Assembly: GCA_963731745.1 (NCBI GenBank)
Contig: CAVSWT010000032.1
Span: forward strand, 35,369-99,368
Length of the DNA: 64,000 bases
Source: an uncultured Ignavibacteriales bacterium
GTDB taxonomy: Bacteria > Bacteroidota > Ignavibacteria > Ignavibacteriales > Ignavibacteriaceae
Direction: 5' to 3'
Below are positions 5,976-64,000 of this stretch, piece by piece. The notes below the pieces were generated by a model. The model was not told the DNA's origin. It ran no database searches and saw nothing but the letters and a program-made list of their open reading frames with translations. The position numbers and the translations under genes were made by a program. Numbering within the stretch: position 1 is the stretch's first letter; each line of letters opens with the position of its first letter.

Positions 5976-7370
5976 ATGAAAAAAACATCCATCTTAGTTG
6001 TAGATGATGAAGAAAATTATTTAATGATTTTAAAAGAATTATTGCATGAAGAAGGATACGATGAAGTAATCACTGAAAATAGATCAAGAAATGTATTATC
6101 AATTTTAAAGAATAACGATATTGATCTTATTTTATGTGATATAAATATGCCTGAAATGGATGGCTTAGAACTGCTTGAAGAGGTGTCACAGTCCTTTCCC
6201 AAGATTCCAATGATTATGATAACAGGAATGGATGATGTGGAAACAGCTTTAAAAGCCATTAAACTGGGAGCTTATTATTACATCACAAAACCACCGGATA
6301 CTGATAAATTATTTCTTACTATTAAAAGAGCTTTAGAACAGAGATTGCTTGAACTTGAAAGAGATTCGCTTAGATCTTCGTCGATAAATTCAGATAACAA
6401 AAAATTAATTTTTCAAGATATTATTACTGATTCACCTGTGATGTTTAAAGTTTTTGAACTTGTAGAAATTTTTGCTCCTACAAATGAGACTGTTTTAATT
6501 ATGGGTGAAACCGGAACCGGCAAAGATTTGATAGCAAATAAAATTCATGAACTTTCACCCAGAAAGGACAAACAATTTGTTGTTGTAAATTTAGCCTCAA
6601 TAAGCTCTTCTCTATTTGAAAGTGAATTGTTTGGCCATAAAAAAGGCTCATTTACAGGGGCCTTAAATGAAAAAATTGGTTATTTCGAAGAAGCAAATGG
6701 AGGAACTATTTTTTTAGATGAAATAGGAGAGCTTCCTTTCGAATTACAAGGTAAATTATTGAGAGCAATACAATACAGTGAGATATACAGAATTGGAAAC
6801 CCTAAGCCAATTAAATTAGATATTCGAATAATCGCTGCTACTAACAGGGACCTCGCTGAAGATGTAAATAATAAAAAATTTAGAGCGGATCTATATTACA
6901 GGCTAAATAGAGGATTTATAAAATTACCACCACTTAGAAAAAGAGGTGACGATGTTATACTTCTAGCGAAATTTTTCTTAGAAATTGGAAATACCACATA
7001 CTCTAAAAATATACCGGGCTTTACCGATACATTATTAAATTCACTCAAAAAATATAGCTATCCGGGCAATGTTCGAGAACTTGAAAATCTCATTCTAAAT
7101 TCAGTTGCAAAAAGTGATGATTTTAAACCTATAGATAAGATAAACTTTGATTCCAATAATTTGAAAATTAATCTTAATGAAGCAGATGCAGATGAATTTC
7201 AAACCGGTGAAATTAATTTATTATCAATAGAAGATGCGGTAAAAAAGCATATTAAAAATATAATGAAATATGCAGATGGAAATGTTCAAAAAGCTGCTGT
7301 GATTTTAGGTGTAAGTGAACGAACATTGCAAAGAAGATTACAACAAATGAGAAATGAGTCTACCGCCTAA
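5976..7370 (+). CDS. Sigma-54-dependent response regulator (NtrC/Fis family)
   Basis: Receiver domain (ILVVDDE..LILCDINMPEMDG..ITKP). AAA+ sigma-54 interaction domain (GETGTGKD, ESELFGHKKGSFTGA, TIFLDEIGE, YPGNVRELEN). C-terminal Fis-type HTH (AAVILGVSERTLQRRL). Confidence 0.9.
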   Translation: MKKTSILVVDDEENYLMILKELLHEEGYDEVITENRSRNVLSILKNNDIDLILCDINMPEMDGLELLEEVSQSFPKIPMIMITGMDDVETALKAIKLGAYYYITKPPDTDKLFLTIKRALEQRLLELERDSLRSSSINSDNKKLIFQDIITDSPVMFKVFELVEIFAPTNETVLIMGETGTGKDLIANKIHELSPRKDKQFVVVNLASISSSLFESELFGHKKGSFTGALNEKIGYFEEANGGTIFLDEIGELPFELQGKLLRAIQYSEIYRIGNPKPIKLDIRIIAATNRDLAEDVNNKKFRADLYYRLNRGFIKLPPLRKRGDDVILLAKFFLEIGNTTYSKNIPGFTDTLLNSLKKYSYPGNVRELENLILNSVAKSDDFKPIDKINFDSNNLKINLNEADADEFQTGEINLLSIEDAVKKHIKNIMKYADGNVQKAAVILGVSERTLQRRLQQMRNESTA

Positions 7371-7394
7371 AAAGCATATTTTGTCATTAGCGCC

Positions 7395-7423
7395 AAAAAT
7401 GACGTCATTTTTGACGTTTGACA
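7395..7423. promoter_or_regulatory. Candidate enhancer (UAS): 18-bp perfect palindrome plus extra TGAC(G/A) half-sites
   Basis: AAAAATGACGTCATTTTT occupies 7395..7412, followed by TGACG (7412) and TGACA (7419). A TGTCA lies at 7382. The palindrome is centred about 85 bp upstream of the -24 element at 7488. Confidence 0.4.
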
Positions 7424-7486
7424 CTTTCTAATTATAAAACTCCCTCTAAAACCTTATAAAATTAAACCTTCTACCGATTTACCGTA

Positions 7487-7502
7487 CGGCATATTAGTTG
7501 CG
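7487..7502 (+). promoter_or_regulatory. Candidate sigma-54 (-24/-12) promoter
   Basis: cGGCATattagTTGCg has GG at 7488-7489 and GC at 7500-7501. This is exactly the consensus TGGCAC-N5-TTGC spacing. It lies about 35 nt upstream of the ATG at 7536. Confidence 0.5.
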
Positions 7503-7535: not shown

Positions 7536-7736
7536 ATGTCATTTATTCTTCTCTATGTTTTATTTGGAATTTTAGTCGGTGCCGTAAGTCTGTATTTCTT
7601 AAAATCTTCACCTAATGGATGGGAAGATAGTGAAGGATTTCACTATGGGAACCTGGGTGAAAATGAAATACAGCAAACTCAAATTGTTAAAGCTAAACCA
7701 GTTAGTGAATTAGGATACAAACTAAGACAAGTTTAG
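7536..7736 (+). CDS. Small membrane protein (66 aa), hypothetical
   Basis: AGGAG RBS 7 nt upstream. N-terminal TM helix ILLYVLFGILVGAVSLYFL. Sits immediately downstream of the sigma-54 promoter candidate. Confidence 0.5.
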   Translation: MSFILLYVLFGILVGAVSLYFLKSSPNGWEDSEGFHYGNLGENEIQQTQIVKAKPVSELGYKLRQV

Positions 7737-57672: not shown

Positions 57673-57759
57673 GGAGAGTTGGCAGAGTGGTTGAATGCGG
57701 CGGTCTTGAAAACCGTTAAGGATGCAAGTCCTTCCGGGGTTCGAATCCCTGACTCTCCG
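57673..57759 (+). tRNA. tRNA-Ser (anticodon UGA)
   Basis: Cloverleaf folded by hand. Acceptor stem GGAGAGT/ACTCTCC plus discriminator G. Anticodon stem GCGGT/ACCGT with loop CTTGAAA. Long variable arm. T-arm CGGGG-TTCGAAT-CCCTG. Confidence 0.9.
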
Positions 57760-57962
57760 CGACTAAAAAAAGACTCAAAATACAACATGCAAATTGTGTT
57801 TTTGAGCCTTTTTCGTATAGTCTCGTCTCTCAGATACACTCAAATACCCCCTTTTAAAACTAGGTTTGGAGACTTTTTGGAGACCTTTTTAATATCGTAC
57901 TTTTATATATTATGACAATTATAAACTGACTAGGTAAAAAATCTTTTATTTAATATTTACTA

Positions 57963-59045
57963 TTATGGAAGTAAATTCTTTAAGCTACTTACCTCTTGAT
58001 GAAGCAGTTCAGCCTTGTGGTGAGCATATATTTCAGTTTGAACAACAGACCAGTGTCCTAATAATTCTTTAACAGAATGAATAGGAACTCCATTCTGCAC
58101 GAGCATTGATGCAAAAGTATGTCTGAACTTATGCAGGTAGGCGTTCGTATTTATACCTGCTGCTTTTGCAACTTTTTTACAAACTGTAAGCAGATTTCTT
58201 TCTCGCAATTTTTTTCCAGATGGTGAACAAAATGGAAATTCAAATGCATTCGGTTTTTTATGTTCTTCAAGCAATAATTCATAAAGCAGATTATGCATTG
58301 GTATATTTCTTTCAGAATTAAATGATTTGGTCTTAAAATTTTCACTTGATCGTATATGGATCAATCGATTTTTGAAATCAATGTCATCCCAGGTTAAATT
58401 AGCCAATTCCCCAAACCTTGCGCCGGTAAACAATAATCCTAGAAACGCTTTTCTATAAGCCGAGTTCATCTGCTGCTGAAAAAATAATTTAATCTCTTCT
58501 GGAGAATAATAATCGGGTTTTTTCTTATCCACCTTTAAGTTTTTGATATGCATCATTGGACTTTGTTTGATATGTCCTTTAATAACTTCCTGATTAAATA
58601 CTGCCTTAACAGTTTGAATAAAGAAATTGATGGTTTTTGGTTTAGGCATTGCCATTTTTGAATTGTTTTTACCTCGTTCTGGTTTTTCACGAACAAGTTC
58701 ATTATAAAGCTTTGTAGCATGATCTGGGGTGAACTCATCAACATAAGTTACATTAAATACTTTTGCAACTAATTTCATTTGAGTTATAACATATTTATTT
58801 TTTTTAATTGAGGCAGGACGCAAATGTATTTTACTTGCAAGAAAATCATCAAGCGCTTGATTCATTGGATATCTTGCGGTTAACAGTTTTGCTGAAATTA
58901 GTTTCTCATCATATTTGGATTTTTCATTAGCACCATCGAATGCCTTTGCTTCAGCTTTAGTTCGAAATGTTTTTTGAATCCTGTTCCCATATTTATCTCG
59001 GGTGTCTACTTGGAATTTTCCGTTGGGTTTAGTTTTAATTGCCAT
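57963..59045 (-). CDS. Tyrosine recombinase / phage-type integrase
   Basis: N-terminal SAM-like core-binding domain. Catalytic residues in context: GARFGEL (Arg), HKFRHTFAS (H-x-x-R) and LLGHWSVVQTEIYAH (His..Tyr). Confidence 0.9.
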   Translation of the reverse strand: MAIKTKPNGKFQVDTRDKYGNRIQKTFRTKAEAKAFDGANEKSKYDEKLISAKLLTARYPMNQALDDFLASKIHLRPASIKKNKYVITQMKLVAKVFNVTYVDEFTPDHATKLYNELVREKPERGKNNSKMAMPKPKTINFFIQTVKAVFNQEVIKGHIKQSPMMHIKNLKVDKKKPDYYSPEEIKLFFQQQMNSAYRKAFLGLLFTGARFGELANLTWDDIDFKNRLIHIRSSENFKTKSFNSERNIPMHNLLYELLLEEHKKPNAFEFPFCSPSGKKLRERNLLTVCKKVAKAAGINTNAYLHKFRHTFASMLVQNGVPIHSVKELLGHWSVVQTEIYAHHKAELLHQEVSSLKNLLP

Positions 59046-59372
59046 TTAGGTTACTCCTTCTATTGTTAATCTTGCAATTTCTGTTAAATGAATTTTTGGT
59101 TTGTCTCCCAAATTGATTGTTCTAATTGATCCGGATTTTATTCGGCGACGAATGAACTCCTCCCCTACTCCAAGTATTTTTGCTGTTTCATTTGCCGTAA
59201 ATAATATTTTATCAGGGTGGTTATGAACCAGTATTTGAATGGTAGTCTTTAAATTCTCAGCATCGTTAACATTAGACAAATTTTCATTTGCCGGACAAAT
59301 AATTTGAGTCCCGTCCTTTGCAAGTAAAGTTTTTGTAGAACTTAAATGCGATATTTCTATTAACGATGCCAT
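59046..59372 (-). CDS. Excisionase-like / MerR-type HTH DNA-binding protein
   Basis: LFTANETAKILGVGEEFIRRRIKSGSIRTINLG is an HTH_17-like pattern. Its stop abuts the integrase start. Confidence 0.55.
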   Translation of the reverse strand: MASLIEISHLSSTKTLLAKDGTQIICPANENLSNVNDAENLKTTIQILVHNHPDKILFTANETAKILGVGEEFIRRRIKSGSIRTINLGDKPKIHLTEIARLTIEGVT

Positions 59373-59403
59373 AGCTTATTATAATTATCTTATACCTTTT
59401 TCA

Positions 59404-59436
59404 AAATAAAAGCCGCTGAACTTTCAGCGGCATTTT
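59404..59436 (-). terminator. Rho-independent terminator
   Basis: On the minus strand it reads aaaatGCCGCTGAAagTTCAGCGGCttttatttt. It lies 25 nt downstream of the 59461 stop and separates the orphan-gene operon from xis-int. Confidence 0.65.
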
Positions 59437-59460
59437 ATGAAATTATTTAAGTCTATTCAT

Positions 59461-60090
59461 TTAATCTTCGTCATTACTATCTTGAATGGTATTTTCATCC
59501 TCAATGCTATCCTCCAAGTTTTCATCAACTTCAGGATCGGCATTTCTAGTATTAGAATCATTAAAATATTTGTCATCTTCGTACTCAATTAGATGTAAAA
59601 TTTTAACTGCTAAAGGAGTTAACATTTCATAAATTCTAAGAACCACTTGTACAAATGTAAATTCTTCAACTTCAAATTTGTAATAATAATTAGTATCAAA
59701 ATAAAATTTGTATTCACCATTCTTTATAAAAGATAAATTGAGTAAATCCGCCATTCCTTTACTTTGTTTATAGACAAAGTTTCTGCTTTTATATAAACTG
59801 TTGATTATACCGTAGTTATCATTATGATCATAAATAGTATACAAAAATTCTACTTCATACTTTTTATTACCTTTAAATTTTACCTTCACATTAAATCTTT
59901 TTGGAACTTCTTGTGGTCCAATTGGCAATTCAAATTCAATTGTCTCATTAACATTCATTTTATAGGCAACTACTTTTAAGGTTGCTTCTGCGATTTCATC
60001 CTTTTTGAATGTACTGACTTCAGGATTTGTGGTGTCGCCATCGTCTGTTTGAGAATTATTTGTTACTTCTTTGTTTAATATATTTTCCAT
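59461..60090 (-). CDS. Hypothetical protein with acidic disordered termini
   Basis: 209 aa. Beta-rich core flanked by a D/E/T-rich N-terminus and a C-terminus reading DPEVDENLEDSIEDENTIQDSNDED. I recognise no motif. Confidence 0.5.
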   Translation of the reverse strand: MENILNKEVTNNSQTDDGDTTNPEVSTFKKDEIAEATLKVVAYKMNVNETIEFELPIGPQEVPKRFNVKVKFKGNKKYEVEFLYTIYDHNDNYGIINSLYKSRNFVYKQSKGMADLLNLSFIKNGEYKFYFDTNYYYKFEVEEFTFVQVVLRIYEMLTPLAVKILHLIEYEDDKYFNDSNTRNADPEVDENLEDSIEDENTIQDSNDED

Positions 60091-60144
60091 AACTTTTCCT
60101 TTAAATATTAGGACTGGATAAATCCAGCCCCGGTTAATGTTTAG

Positions 60145-60810
60145 TTATTTATTTTTCTCCCAGCCAAAAGTTTCTCTGATTGATCTGTAGATCTGAGTTT
60201 TCACTTGCGGATATTTATTCAATAATGAATAAGTATCTTTAAGCTCGTTTCTTAGGATCACATTCAACTGACTATTAAAGTCTTTCCCATTAATCATTGC
60301 GACGTCCTTTAACATTGCAATGCGATGATCTTTTTTCTCTTTCAACTTTCCCAGCTTAGCTAGTATATCTTTTTGGAATCCTTCAGCATTCTTCTTTATT
60401 TCTCTCTTTAAAGCAATTTGAGAATTGATAGTTTTCATTCTCCCCTTAGCAGCCCGTGAATTAGTTGTACATGCGCTGCTATACTTTTTACCCCAACTAT
60501 TCAACGCAAGTTTAGTTTTCTTTTGTTGAAGTTTGGTTAGAGTAAGCTTAGCTTTAAATGCTTTGACTTCGGGGCTTGTAAGATTTTTGATGGTAGGATC
60601 TTCTCCTTCCTTTTCGGAAGGAATTTCGATTTGTTTAGAGCTAATGATTTTCTCCAAAACTATTATTGAATCAGAGAGTTCATAATTTTGATTGAGATGG
60701 TATGAATAACTCTTCTCAATTCCATTGAATCTTTTAGGAGATAATGTTCTGTAATTATTATTATCTCCTTTCGGATCAGCTAACTTTATTTTTGGCATCT
60801 TTGCCTCCAA
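60145..60810 (-). CDS. Hypothetical lysine-rich helical protein
   Basis: 221 aa with a strong GGAGG RBS. Central K-rich helices. I recognise no motif. Confidence 0.5.
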   Translation of the reverse strand: MEAKMPKIKLADPKGDNNNYRTLSPKRFNGIEKSYSYHLNQNYELSDSIIVLEKIISSKQIEIPSEKEGEDPTIKNLTSPEVKAFKAKLTLTKLQQKKTKLALNSWGKKYSSACTTNSRAAKGRMKTINSQIALKREIKKNAEGFQKDILAKLGKLKEKKDHRIAMLKDVAMINGKDFNSQLNVILRNELKDTYSLLNKYPQVKTQIYRSIRETFGWEKNK

Positions 60811-60865
60811 ATTGATTTAACTTCTGTTATTTAGATTGAAGTTATTTTTAACTTCGACACAATGA

Positions 60866-60882
60866 GGCAATAGATATACCGC
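60866..60882 (-). promoter_or_regulatory. Candidate sigma-54 (-24/-12) promoter
   Basis: The minus strand reads tgcGGTATatctaTTGCc. GG (60880-60879) and GC (60868-60867) sit at exact consensus spacing. It lies about 57 nt upstream of the ATG at 60810. Confidence 0.4.
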
Positions 60883-60929
60883 AGAAATGATTTAAAATTT
60901 TTAGTTTTGTAACTTATTTTTGGAATTGT

Positions 60930-60957
60930 ACTTGAAGTATTTCAAGTAAACTTGAAG
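60930..60957. promoter_or_regulatory. Candidate enhancer: inverted repeat plus a third half-site
   Basis: ACTTGAA-gtat-TTCAAGT occupies 60930-60947, followed by aa-ACTTGAAG (60950-60957). It lies about 50-75 bp upstream of the -24 element and just after the stop of the EBP gene. Confidence 0.35.
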
Positions 60958-60979
60958 ATGTTAGAGTTGGCGCAAATTA

Positions 60980-62866
60980 TCAGAGGTTTAATTTCTTTTT
61001 GATCTCTCCATATTTATTATAAGCTTTGTTAAGTTTTGATTTACTGAACTGTGTTCCGTCCATGCCAACAATAACCGATGCCGATTCTTTTTTTAGAGTT
61101 TTGTTCCAATGCATATTGAAGTCATCTAAGTATAATTTCGCGATTATTGGTTCAACAAAATTATCAAGAAATTTTCCGTCTTTATCCGGCGACCAGTTAT
61201 TTAAAAATAATAGTAGTAATTCATTTAATCTTTCAAAATCTTCTTCATGATATATCGGCGTGTTCTCAATTGGTTCCTTTTTAATTTGCTCAACTTTAAT
61301 TCTAGTTTGATTTTCCGACAGACAATTAAAATATAAAATTTTCAAATACTGATTTAGCTGTCTAATATTCCCCGGCCAGTTTAGAGATTGCAAGTATTCT
61401 ACAGCGACCTCATCAATAGTGATATATCGATCTCTCTTTCGATTCAATTCCGACAGAAAAGAGTCAATCATTATTCTTATGTCTTCTGATCTTTCACGCA
61501 GTGCCGGAATCTTTATTATTCTTCCCGTGATTCTATAATAAAGATCGTCTTCAAATTCCCCCTCTTTAAATAGTTTTTTTAAATCCTTATTTGAACCAAA
61601 AATAAGCCTTACATTAGCTTGAGTTGATTTGCCTTCACCTAAAACTTCAAATTTCTTTGTACCTATAAAAGTAATTAATCCATCACGCGTTTCCTTAGTT
61701 GTTCTGTCAATCTCATCAAGAAATAAAGTACCTCCTTCAGCTCGTTTTATTTTCCCGTCATAATCTTTTATTGCTCCAGTGAAAGCTCCTTTTTTCCAGC
61801 CGAATAATTTTTGATCTAGTTTATCACTGGACAAATTACCACAATTTTGTTCTTCATAATTTTTATTATGTCGATCGCTTTCATTATGAATTATATTAGC
61901 CAACCATGATTTTCCAACACCGGTTTCACCTAAAAGCAAAATAGGAATATCGTCTTCATTTATTACTGAAAGAACGGAGCGCAATTGTTGCTTATAATTA
62001 TTATCGTTTGTTAATACTTTCTTACTTAATGATTCTAACTGCTCATCGATGGTTTTTGTTGGACTCAAAATTTTTTCTTCTGGTTGATTTAATCTGATAA
62101 CTGTCTTTTCGAATAAATTTTGTTCTTGAATGGTATCGAATAAAAATGAAAATAAAGGTTTTAGTTCTGAAGTATTATATATTGAAATCCAATATATTAG
62201 CTGGGAGACAATTAAATAAAAATAGATTTTTAATTGTTCAGTATTATTTGAATCAGTGAGAATAATTTTAAATAAATTGTTTTTACTTTCTTGTTCATAA
62301 ATAGTTATCACTACCTTTCTCAATGCAACCAACAATTTATCTATCTTATTTTCATTACCTTCGGAATTATCAAAGATAATATATATTGGTGTATCGTTAT
62401 CCTTTATACCTTGGAAAAAATTTCCCGGTGGGAAATTCTTAAACATGTTAGCATTAATTCCCTCATCTTTCAAAATATTAGGAATGGTTGTTGAATTTAT
62501 TAAGTAAATGAATGATTGAAAATTGTTCGTATCTTTATTGTTGATTATACTGATTTGTTCAAAAGCTTTAATAAAACTTTCATCTAATTTTTTTTTACCT
62601 TCTTTCAGATTTATTTTAACTTGTGTGGATTGCTCATTGTCCCCACTCGATGTAAATGACCTTAAATTATCTGCCTTAAATTCTTTGTCATTGTTGACCG
62701 TTTCAAATATTGAATCAAGCGCTTTGTTTTTGAGCTGGTTTAATTCATCAAAAACTTGTCTTTCCTCAATTGACGATATATTGAATGACTTCTTTAATTC
62801 AGTTTCAACCTCTTGAATTAGATCAAAATATCTACCTTCAGATAGTAGTTTTTGAATTTTTTCCAT
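60980..62866 (-). CDS. Sigma-54 enhancer-binding-protein-type AAA+ ATPase with an uncharacterised ~300-aa N-terminal domain
   Basis: Walker A LLGETGVGKS, intact sigma-54 contact loop FGWKKGAFTGA, Walker B TLFLDEID, LYYRI and WPGNIRQL. The C-terminal end SKSKLNKAYNKYGEI looks like a degenerate Fis-type HTH. There is no receiver, PAS or GAF pattern in residues 1-300. Confidence 0.8.
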   Translation of the reverse strand: MEKIQKLLSEGRYFDLIQEVETELKKSFNISSIEERQVFDELNQLKNKALDSIFETVNNDKEFKADNLRSFTSSGDNEQSTQVKINLKEGKKKLDESFIKAFEQISIINNKDTNNFQSFIYLINSTTIPNILKDEGINANMFKNFPPGNFFQGIKDNDTPIYIIFDNSEGNENKIDKLLVALRKVVITIYEQESKNNLFKIILTDSNNTEQLKIYFYLIVSQLIYWISIYNTSELKPLFSFLFDTIQEQNLFEKTVIRLNQPEEKILSPTKTIDEQLESLSKKVLTNDNNYKQQLRSVLSVINEDDIPILLLGETGVGKSWLANIIHNESDRHNKNYEEQNCGNLSSDKLDQKLFGWKKGAFTGAIKDYDGKIKRAEGGTLFLDEIDRTTKETRDGLITFIGTKKFEVLGEGKSTQANVRLIFGSNKDLKKLFKEGEFEDDLYYRITGRIIKIPALRERSEDIRIMIDSFLSELNRKRDRYITIDEVAVEYLQSLNWPGNIRQLNQYLKILYFNCLSENQTRIKVEQIKKEPIENTPIYHEEDFERLNELLLLFLNNWSPDKDGKFLDNFVEPIIAKLYLDDFNMHWNKTLKKESASVIVGMDGTQFSKSKLNKAYNKYGEIKKKLNL

Positions 62867-63117
62867 ATAAGTCTATGTGTTTTAGTTAATAAATTGGTTA
62901 ACAGCTTTGAAGATTCATTGAATTTTTGCAAGGGTGCTTAAATATTGATATAAAAGTTTAATTTTATTTGTAAAAATTCTCAAAAATAAAATAAGGTATA
63001 CGAATTAATTAGTCGATTATCATAGAAAACTGATAAAAAAATCTCAATTAATTAAGTAGAATTACACAATTAATCATTTTTTATTTTATTCAACTATTGT
63101 TAAAGCTTTATTTTTCA

Positions 63118-64000
63118 TTAAGTTATAAGCAAATCTCTTTCAATTAGCATAAAGCTAGCCCAATAAAAAGGATTAGGGTACATTTGCTTAAGAATTAATT
63201 GTGCTTCTCTAAATGACTCAAATTTATTATCATTGATTAACCATTTAGAATAAAATTCTGTTATAAATTCTTTAGAAATTTTGTCATCAATTTCCCACAG
63301 ACTGATAATAATAGATTTTGCTCCAGCCTTGTAAAAAGCTCTTTGTAAACTTAAATAATCTCCAGATTCTAGTTCAAAACCTAAACCCGATTGACATACA
63401 CTTAATACCACCAGTTCGCAACTTTGCAGATTCATACTTCTAATTTCGTCGGGTGTTACAACTCCATTAAAATTGATATATTCTTTTCCGTCGATGTCCA
63501 CAGAACATCCGGACAGTAATATTCCAGACATTGTATATGAATCATCTATCTTTTCAATTTGTTTTAAATTGGGTAAGAAATATCCATGCGTTGCTACATG
63601 CAAAATTGTAGGAGAATTAACATCCATAAAATTATTTTTTGAAGCATCATCGTGGATATATAATTGCACTTTCCAATTATGTCCGTTCAATAATGAAGCG
63701 ACTTCATTTACTTCATTCTTGCTTTCGGGTAATGGTTTGATTTCATAATCATTTAATTCATATACAGAATTGTATTCATTTGGAATTTTATATCCACTTT
63801 CTAAACTAACTGCTCTGTAGGCTGGGGATCCAAATAAACATGCAGTTTTTTCTAAATTATTATTTGGGATAATTCTCATGTTTATCAAATTGTTTGTATA
63901 TCTGATTTTTTTATTTAATATTAAATACTCGCCACCAGAAGACAATAATGAATCGAAATTTATAAATCTTAATGCTCCATCTGAAGATAAAAAGATTTCA
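63118..64000 (-). CDS. CHAT-domain (caspase-like) protease, C-terminal part; N-terminus lies outside the window
   Basis: The His/Cys dyad is in context: ILHVATHGYF and LVVLSVCQSGLG. By hand translation the frame stays open upstream of the track's TTG at 63945 through to position 64000 (..EIFLSSDGALRFINFDSLLSSGGEY..). Confidence 0.8.
   Translation of the reverse strand, partial: EIFLSSDGALRFINFDSLLSSGGEYLILNKKIRYTNNLINMRIIPNNNLEKTACLFGSPAYRAVSLESGYKIPNEYNSVYELNDYEIKPLPESKNEVNEVASLLNGHNWKVQLYIHDDASKNNFMDVNSPTILHVATHGYFLPNLKQIEKIDDSYTMSGILLSGCSVDIDGKEYINFNGVVTPDEIRSMNLQSCELVVLSVCQSGLGFELESGDYLSLQRAFYKAGAKSIIISLWEIDDKISKEFITEFYSKWLINDNKFESFREAQLILKQMYPNPFYWASFMLIERDLLIT

Follow-up and report, generated by a model that had tools for sequence, protein, structure and literature searches.

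The 64,000-nucleotide stretch analysed here (the window) comes from an uncultured Ignavibacteriales bacterium (contig CAVSWT010000032.1) and raises the question of how a small pair of genes is switched on. Does the short spacer that separates the gene for a sigma-54 activator, an enhancer-binding protein (EBP), from the downstream gene orf221 hold a complete sigma-54 control region? A preliminary description made from the letters alone had proposed a local circuit consisting of the EBP gene, an inverted-repeat enhancer, a -24/-12 promoter and two controlled genes. That proposal is supported here by the conservation of its parts in related islands, by the intact GAFTGA motif of the activator and by a terminator after the second gene. 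With reasonably good confidence, drawn from sequence comparison, we take the spacer to be the control region of a two-gene sigma-54 unit, which would form the conserved core of a family of Ignavibacteria islands integrated at tRNA-Ser. Two issues bear on this reading: (i) whether the -24/-12 element is a real promoter; and (ii) whether the palindromes upstream of it are binding sites for the EBP.

The spacer and its -24/-12 element

Read on the minus strand, as are all spacer coordinates and letters below, the region between the EBP gene and orf221 contains the following elements.

60967..60950, minus strand: distal dyad ACTCTAA-CATC-TTCAAGT (ACTCTAAcatcTTCAAGT), centred at -103.5, with 12 of its 14 specified bases matching the dyad consensus
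60947..60930, minus strand: proximal perfect dyad ACTTGAA-ATAC-TTCAAGT (ACTTGAAatacTTCAAGT), centred at -83.5, a putative EBP-binding site (upstream activating sequence)
60882..60929, minus strand: A+T-rich stretch of 48 nt containing AAAAATTTTAAA, between the dyads and the promoter
60881..60866, minus strand: predicted sigma-54 -24/-12 promoter CGGTATATCTATTGCC, with exact GG-N10-GC spacing
60855 +/- 2, minus strand: predicted transcription start (G), from sigma-54 geometry
60855..60838, minus strand: 5′ leader hairpin GAAGTTA-aaaa-TAACTTC, beginning at the predicted start
60808..60804, minus strand: ribosome-binding site GGAGG, upstream of ATG 60798

The stop codon of the EBP gene (TGA) occupies 60982..60980, and the distal dyad starts after 13 further bases. 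All the letters previously described were found on the minus strand, including ACTTGAA-ATAC-TTCAAGT at 60947..60930, and GG and GC do stand at sigma-54 spacing in CGGTATATCTATTGCC, GG-N10-GC being exact. If +1 is placed 12 nt past the C of GC, as in the usual sigma-54 geometry, it falls on G 60855, and GG and GC then occupy -25/-24 and -13/-12. Some of the distances given earlier require correction. The gap between the proximal dyad and GG, put at about 55 bp, measures 49 nt. The start assigned to the 221-aa open reading frame, TTG 60810, overlaps the ribosome-binding site, and ATG 60798 is the likelier start, giving a product of 217 aa. The GGAGG is present as described, but with this start codon the leader is ~57 nt and not 46 nt.

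Taken alone, the single site in the window is suggestive only. The pattern GG-N8-TTGC arises in 0.9% of dinucleotide shuffles of the window spacer, and it occurs 2093 times in the genome with no overall enrichment in intergenic DNA, while a rough count finds such sites over-represented within 3 kb of EBP genes. The genome scan suggested in the preliminary description, carried out with a sigma-54 matrix built from the host's best sites (TGGCAC or TGGCAT-N5-TTGCC), did score the window site, but weakly: it reached 11.9 bits, compared with 15-24 bits for the training sites. In the scan for GG-N8-TTGC, the candidate's class (3/6 matches to TGGCAC) showed no orientation bias. Several of these measures count against a promoter at this position: it ranks only ~30th among intergenic positions, 215 coding positions score as high or higher, and it matches 7 of 12 positions of the extended consensus, with C at -26 and T at -23. 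Since the window site is weak by itself and the genome scan cannot decide, it is the comparative evidence that does.

A module composed of the EBP gene, the spacer and the gene for the 217-aa coiled-coil protein is present in ~14 diverged islands from Ignavibacteria genomes and metagenomes. Homologues of orf221 that are 21-31% identical were found in G096, G039, G051 and three genomes of genus g50, and the contigs of relatives from a profile search added nine lineages to the comparison. An EBP gene lies directly upstream of the orf221 homologue, and the recombinase genes downstream, in G096, G039, G051, the three g50 genomes, L029-31, L033/34, L039, L040 and L042, with only 21-30% identity between the orf221 proteins. 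Genes are almost always arranged in one order: the variable cargo and the EBP gene, then the spacer and the orf221 homologue, then up to three small variable genes, and last the excisionase (xis) and integrase genes. The EBP is 618-638 aa long (449 aa in g50).

A -24/-12-like element stands 64-90 nt before the start codon in every EBP-linked spacer, and also in L037, where restriction genes are located upstream. Every EBP-linked spacer fits YGG-N8-(T/A/C)TG(C/G/T). The 16-mers of the related lineages are listed below.

G096: TGGTAACATATTTGCA
G039: TGGCCCCACCATTGCA
G051: TGGTCTTTTATTTGCA
G410: CGGCTTCTTCTTTGCA
G301: CGGCCTTTTCTTTGCC
L032: TGGCTTTTGGATTGCA
L033: TGGCTCACTGTTTGCA
L035: TGGCATTTCCATTGCA
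L039: TGGCACATGGATTGCA
L040: TGGCAGCAAAGTTGCA
L029: TGGCACTTTAATTGGC, deviating at -12 (TTGG)
L037: TGGCCCCTTCTATGTA, deviating at -12 (ATGT)
L042: CGGTTTCCTATCTGGT, deviating at -12 (CTGG)

Across 14 lineages, GG, T-14 and G-13 are each kept in 14/14, C-12 in 11/14, and T-26 and C-23 in 10/14; the complete GG-N8-TTGC is present in 11/14. The preliminary description had named conservation of the motif in homologous islands as a check, and the motif is indeed conserved there, at the same position. The family consensus, TGGCAT-N5-TTGCA, fits the extended sigma-54 consensus TGGCAC-N5-TTGCW, and L039 carries a textbook TGGCACatggaTTGCA. The remaining spacer sequence is not alignable between lineages, so that retention of the element reflects selection. 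The probability of the pattern in shuffles is ~1% per spacer and the product over five lineages is 2.7e-10, a figure that serves as an illustration and not as a formal P value because the lineages are related. As a negative control, L041 has a gene of the orf221 homologue type behind a 549-aa non-EBP protein, and both the -24/-12 element and the dyads are absent there. The 549-aa upstream protein of this locus (L041:406-2894 with the orf221 homologue) has no Pfam match.

The earlier suggestion of a lineage-specific -24 box, CGGYAT, is not borne out. The family consensus is canonical, the host's best sites read TGGCAC or TGGCAT, and the suggestion was rejected; CGGTAT in the window is a weak variant.

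It could be argued that the GG-N10-GC match is due to chance or is the site of another protein, and that a housekeeping-sigma promoter drives orf221. The weak score of the single site is compatible with this idea, as is a 9/12 sigma-70-like match at 60945..60916 that overlaps the dyads. Against it, GG and TTGC recur at exact spacing in 11/14 lineages and GG in 14/14, sigma-70 promoter-like matches are no commoner in the region than in shuffles, and neither a sigma-70-type nor a Bacteroidetes-type TAnnTTTG promoter was found to be conserved across these spacers. We regard a housekeeping promoter as highly improbable. The related candidate in which TTGC is itself the -35 of a sigma-70 promoter, or part of a TAnnTTTG promoter, was rejected, there being no conserved partner element. 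The deviations at -12 in three lineages (L029, L037 and L042) still count against a sigma-54 promoter, yet the comparison as a whole indicates that the -24/-12 element is very probably a real one.

A hairpin is located at the predicted start in every lineage compared, with differing stem sequences (GAAGTTA/TAACTTC, GAATTC/GAATTC, GACTTT/GAAGTC, GTTC/GAAC and GAAC/GTTC); in L040 a T-run comes after the leader hairpin. Possible roles for this hairpin are stabilisation of the 5′ end, attenuation or operator function.

The tandem dyads and the activator

The distal dyad lies 20 bp upstream of the proximal one, with two bases between them. Their centres fall within the 80-150 bp ahead of the predicted start where repeated enhancer dyads are expected. 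The preliminary description had noted a third half-site, CTTCAAGT, which is present but is not a stray copy, being the right half of the second, imperfect dyad at 60967..60950. The perfect dyad, with 14 specified bases, occurs in the 5.1-Mb genome only at the two copies of the island (see below), compared with ~0.07 occurrences expected from base composition.

Palindromes in the related spacers fall into three layouts, all of which end 48-52 nt before GG. Type A, represented by the window, L033/34, g50, L037 and L042, has two 18-bp dyads with a period of 20-21 bp and no T-run. Both dyads of L033/34 are perfect ACTTGAA-N4-TTCAAGT (ACTTGAAttatTTCAAGT-aa-ACTTGAActacTTCAAGT), g50 and L037 have TTGAActtcTTCAA twice (TTGAA-N4-TTCAA), and the dyads of L042 have a changed half-site, with ACTTAGA-N4-TCTAAGT occurring twice. 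In Type A' (G096, G051, L029, L032 and L035) the inner TTCAxGT-aa-ACTTGAA is kept, the outer arms are TTGCT and AGCAA, and the whole element folds into a hairpin at about -24 kcal/mol, with a T-run after it (folds computed for G096 and G051). Type B (G039, L039 and L040) has a different hairpin, GGTAGAAA...TTTCTACC, and then a T-run. The dyads, the second motif to be checked in homologous islands, are conserved as a layout in L033/34, g50, L037 and L042 and by their core in five more lineages; the Type B hairpin differs.

These layouts bear on an alternative in which the promoter is real but the palindrome does no more than terminate the EBP gene as an intrinsic terminator, or in the window is what is left of a decayed one, while the EBP acts from another place or from solution. 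In G096, G051, L029, L032, L035, G039, L039 and L040 the palindrome is a strong hairpin with a T-run after it, a likely terminator. The computed folds are -24.8 kcal/mol for G096 (z -6.3) and -24.0 kcal/mol for G051 (z -4.8), in both cases with the T-run directly after, and -12.3 kcal/mol for G039 (z -2.8), again with a T-run. The outer arms in the G096 type have changed in a compensatory manner (TTGCT and AGCAA), so that the outer half-site changes keep the hairpin and not the individual dyads. All of this speaks against the palindrome as an activator site, as does the failure to detect the HTH_8 domain in the EBP (see below). On the other side, there is no T-run in the window, L033/34, g50, L037 or L042, and the folds of the window and g50 are no better than those of shuffles: the proximal dyad of the window would form a weak RNA hairpin of -7 kcal/mol (z -0.96), and the g50 dyads give no fold (z +0.14). 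Moreover, the inner 16 bp are kept as sequence, beyond what pairing demands, across spacers that are otherwise unalignable, and enhancers are usually laid out as tandem dyads with a period of 20-21 bp and a constant spacing to -24. A single palindrome can also serve as both terminator and enhancer. A terminator or remnant with no activator role is, in our estimation, unlikely.

Our own reading is that the palindrome would be an EBP-binding site that in several lineages also terminates the EBP gene. Because the palindrome lies inside a terminator-like hairpin in several relatives, an enhancer role stands on less firm ground than the promoter, and we favour it for the window dyads with moderate confidence. 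The EBP C-terminal motif differs with the type of palindrome, being YN(S/T)SxL with Type A and RGx(R/K)xAL with Type B. This correspondence would fit recognition of the palindrome by the EBP, and would also fit plain shared ancestry.

The stretch between dyads and promoter may also have a function. Its A/T tracts and its length of ~48-52 nt recur in the homologous spacers, and it is possibly a candidate bending or looping region; no consensus for integration host factor (IHF) was seen by eye in 60882..60929.

The proposed activator is encoded immediately upstream.

60980..62866, minus strand: EBP gene, 628 aa, with the Pfam domain Sigma54_activat

The AAA+ domain (PF00158, Sigma54_activat, E 3.7e-46) covers residues 288-447 and contains the motifs GETGVGKS, GAFTGA and DEID. 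GAFTGA is intact in the window, and the relatives have the loop variants GSFTGA, GAFTDA, GSYTDS, GSFTNA and GGFTSA. Among NCBIfam and PADLOC profiles the EBP matches RtcR and RtcR_PspF2 best, largely through its AAA+ domain, and the best sequence matches in the Protein Data Bank (PDB) are NifA, NtrC1, FleQ and PspF. Pfam and PDB sequence searches with residues 1-286 returned nothing.

At the C-terminus HTH_8 gave no match even at E 10, a point against the proposed circuit. A conserved pattern, A-x3-G-x-x-G-x5-S-x-L-x-K-x-Y, is present and is helix-turn-helix-like by eye only. Because HTH_8 went undetected, we only infer that the EBP binds DNA. A CARF domain in the N-terminal part was considered and found unsupported: the Pfam and PDB searches were empty, and the PADLOC match begins at the AAA+ domain in the homologues, the window EBP being the only one in which it extends N-terminally as far as residue 197. 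The AlphaFold2 model of the EBP (pLDDT 45) is too poor to judge CARF.

Output genes, island context and host sigma-54

Downstream of the spacer, the unit and its surroundings consist of the following features.

60145..60798, minus strand: orf221, first gene of the unit, 217 aa from ATG 60798 (221 aa from TTG 60810)
59461..60090, minus strand: orf209, second gene, lineage-specific, 209 aa with acidic tails
59431..59403, minus strand: strong intrinsic terminator, GCCGCTGAAAGTTCAGCGGC then TTTTATTTT, after orf209 and before xis-int
59046-59372, minus strand: excisionase-like helix-turn-helix gene of the island
57963-59045, minus strand: tyrosine integrase gene of the island
57673-57760, plus strand: tRNA-Ser(UGA), adjoining the integrase gene

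The protein database holds the 217-aa form of orf221. The family is rare: an exhaustive profile search recovered 45 clusters among 1.84 billion representative proteins, and word-based protein searches and pattern-based locus searches found only orf221 itself and two relatives. The confident AlphaFold2 model (pLDDT 85.6) has a helix at residues 25-58, a beta-hairpin, a 62-residue helix and a small helical bundle, so that a beta-hairpin caps a long helical hairpin and the bundle forms the C-terminus. Fold searches of the PDB and of the viral predicted structures in BFVD gave nothing significant, the best matches being prefoldin-like coiled coils (E 0.3 and 0.17), and Pfam, PHROG and PADLOC yielded no noteworthy family. 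A PspA-like identity was rejected, since PF04012 matches neither orf221 nor, at E 0.01, anything in the genome, and there is no PspA/Vipp1 fold match.

For orf209 there were no family matches in the libraries searched, and a common origin with the second genes found elsewhere in the island family was dismissed, none being alignable. The second genes are mutually unrelated, and orf221 is the only conserved output. Given the terminator after orf209, and the similar strong terminator that separates xis from the orf221 homologue in L040, xis-int is not simply on the same transcript.

On the minus strand the island reads integrase, xis, terminator, orf209, orf221, spacer, EBP and a gene for a TPR-CHAT protease. 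The g50 islands occupy the tRNA-Ser site used in the window and share its neighbouring inositol-monophosphatase-like gene. The attR repeat of the window island was searched for and not found. In L042 a large serine recombinase (Resolvase + Recombinase + Zn_ribbon_recom) replaces the tyrosine integrase; the TPR-CHAT, EBP and orf221-like module is located beside it (L042:981-6081). The module always stands between variable defence-type cargo and recombinase genes, whether these encode a tyrosine integrase or a large serine recombinase. The cargo upstream of the EBP differs between islands and includes a PDC-M19B defence candidate in g50 (L020:8711-9547, E 2.4e-116), a SNF2-type helicase in G051 (L009:1101-3968), an AAA_15 ATPase with the type I restriction subunit HsdR (L043:170-4828) and an 801-aa TPR-CHAT protease (L010:4983-7388), and type I restriction genes are found in L037/L043. 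The island family looks like a carrier of defence genes.

A second copy of window positions 57737-64000 exists on another contig of the host (C7:5043-12769), at a different tRNA gene, with 97.7% identity over 7.7 kb. The two copies are identical from xis through orf221 (59046-60810) and the spacer differs by one 1-base indel at 60893; divergence is 1.3% in the integrase gene, 1.9% in the EBP gene and 3.1% in the CHAT gene. The shared central segment looks like recent gene conversion. The EBP gene of this second copy (C7:7640-9525, L010) has a one-base deletion that splits it into 449 + 163 aa, and the G039 EBP gene (L008:707-2570) is frameshifted in a T-run (400 + 213 aa). Either broken activator genes recur in the island family, or these are assembly indel errors.

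The circuit would also depend on the host for sigma-54. The genome (33% G+C) carries ~20 EBP genes, and strong TGGCAC/TGGCAT-N5-TTGC sites are located before genes, several of them beside EBP genes. The preliminary description had held that absence of rpoN would refute the circuit. The gene is present in a single copy (contig C3:42792-44239, L001:1492-2939, minus strand), but in the assembly the absence of one A breaks its frame into 152 + 323 aa, the run being A4 where congeners have A5. This frameshift is a point against a working circuit and, if real, it would leave the circuit silent in this strain. rpoN was found in 20/20 relatives examined, with an open frame of 484-510 aa in 18/20; the shorter frames are those of G156 (374 aa) and G003 (216 aa, a partial match only).

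The frameshift raises the possibility that the elements are real and the circuit is a fossil here, with sigma-54 inactivated and the EBP of one island copy lost. The A4 run in the only rpoN and the one-base deletion in the C7 copy of the EBP gene are what such a history would leave. However, the rest of rpoN is 93-95% identical to its congeners with no further defect, a one-base homopolymer difference is a common assembly error, and the EBP copy in the window is intact. Because the ~20 EBP genes and strong sigma-54 promoters are also intact, either an error in the assembly or a very young mutation is the probable cause of the frameshift, and we consider a fossil circuit improbable.

A second local sigma-54 circuit was noted on the plus strand of the window. 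It comprises an EBP gene (5976-7370), GTCAT...ATGAC-type palindromes (~7383-7424) and a candidate promoter CGGCATATTAGTTGCG (7487-7502) that scores 18.5 bits on the host matrix, followed by a gene that starts at 7537.

Proposed mechanism and comparison with known systems

For the control region as we read it, the following mechanism may be proposed. Sigma-54 RNA polymerase would bind CGGTATATCTATTGCC (60881..60866) as a closed complex, and the island's own EBP would assemble on the tandem dyad pair near -84 and -104. From there the EBP would reach the polymerase across ~50 bp of A+T-rich DNA and use ATP to open the promoter. Transcription would start near G 60855. The resulting RNA would have the short hairpin at its 5′ end, carry the coding sequences of the 217-aa coiled-coil protein and of the 209-aa acidic protein, and terminate at 59431..59403, ahead of xis-int. 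Reception of the signal presumably falls to the ~285-aa N-terminal domain of the EBP.

A broader scenario is that the EBP/sigma-54/orf221 module is the master switch of an undescribed family of small integrative defence islands, in which some sensor reads stress or infection. We regard it as tentative and, on balance, doubtful. If it were true, the orf221 protein might trigger the xis-int or serine-recombinase genes, leading to island exit, or it might feed back on the EBP in the way that PspA feeds back on PspF. The result would be a sigma-54-gated decision in the life cycle of a mobile element whose defence cargo is varied (TPR-CHAT proteases, type I restriction genes, PDC-M19B, SNF2 helicase).

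Among known systems, pspF/pspA-E of Enterobacteria has a comparable arrangement, with an EBP gene beside its own sigma-54 promoter, activator sites ~80-110 bp upstream and a first product that is a helical coiled-coil protein of ~220 aa (PspA, 222 aa). Here, however, the genes are co-directional and not divergent, the EBP has a large N-terminal domain that is absent in PspF, orf221 has no PspA_IM30 match, a beta-hairpin caps its model, and the genomic setting is a mobile island. The resemblance is one of layout only. With the RtcR and RtcR_PspF-type activators the EBP shares its best AAA+ profile matches and a defence or mobile context, related islands having type I restriction genes. Activators of the RtcR_PspF type, with a CARF-AAA+-HTH architecture, have been predicted to control adjacent defence genes and are linked to restriction-modification (Makarova et al. 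2014, PMC4012209). In the present case CARF is not shown, rtcA and rtcB are not nearby, and the downstream genes are orf221 and orf209.

NtrC at glnAp2 is similar in having two dyads about two helical turns apart upstream of a GG-N10-GC element, with an A+T-rich stretch between, but it differs in its dyad sequence, its DNA-binding segment and its sensor domain, and the EBP described here is without a receiver domain. XylR and the Pu promoter of the TOL plasmid provide a parallel for an activator and its target promoter that travel on a mobile element and depend on host sigma-54. XylR controls catabolic cargo, whereas in the islands the module is the conserved core beside the recombinase genes and it is the cargo that varies.

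Full-text literature searches found no description of a sigma-54/EBP module as the core of integrative islands, and no sigma-54 promoters seem to be documented in the literature for Ignavibacteria, for which the spacers compared here add examples. Comprising a single activator, a single promoter and a single small protein family, the module is a testable system for studying the signal to which a mobile or defence island responds. Set beside these known systems, the type of switch, consisting of an EBP, an enhancer and a -24/-12 promoter, is textbook; what is new is a rare module, restricted to Ignavibacteria, as the core of small tRNA-Ser islands.

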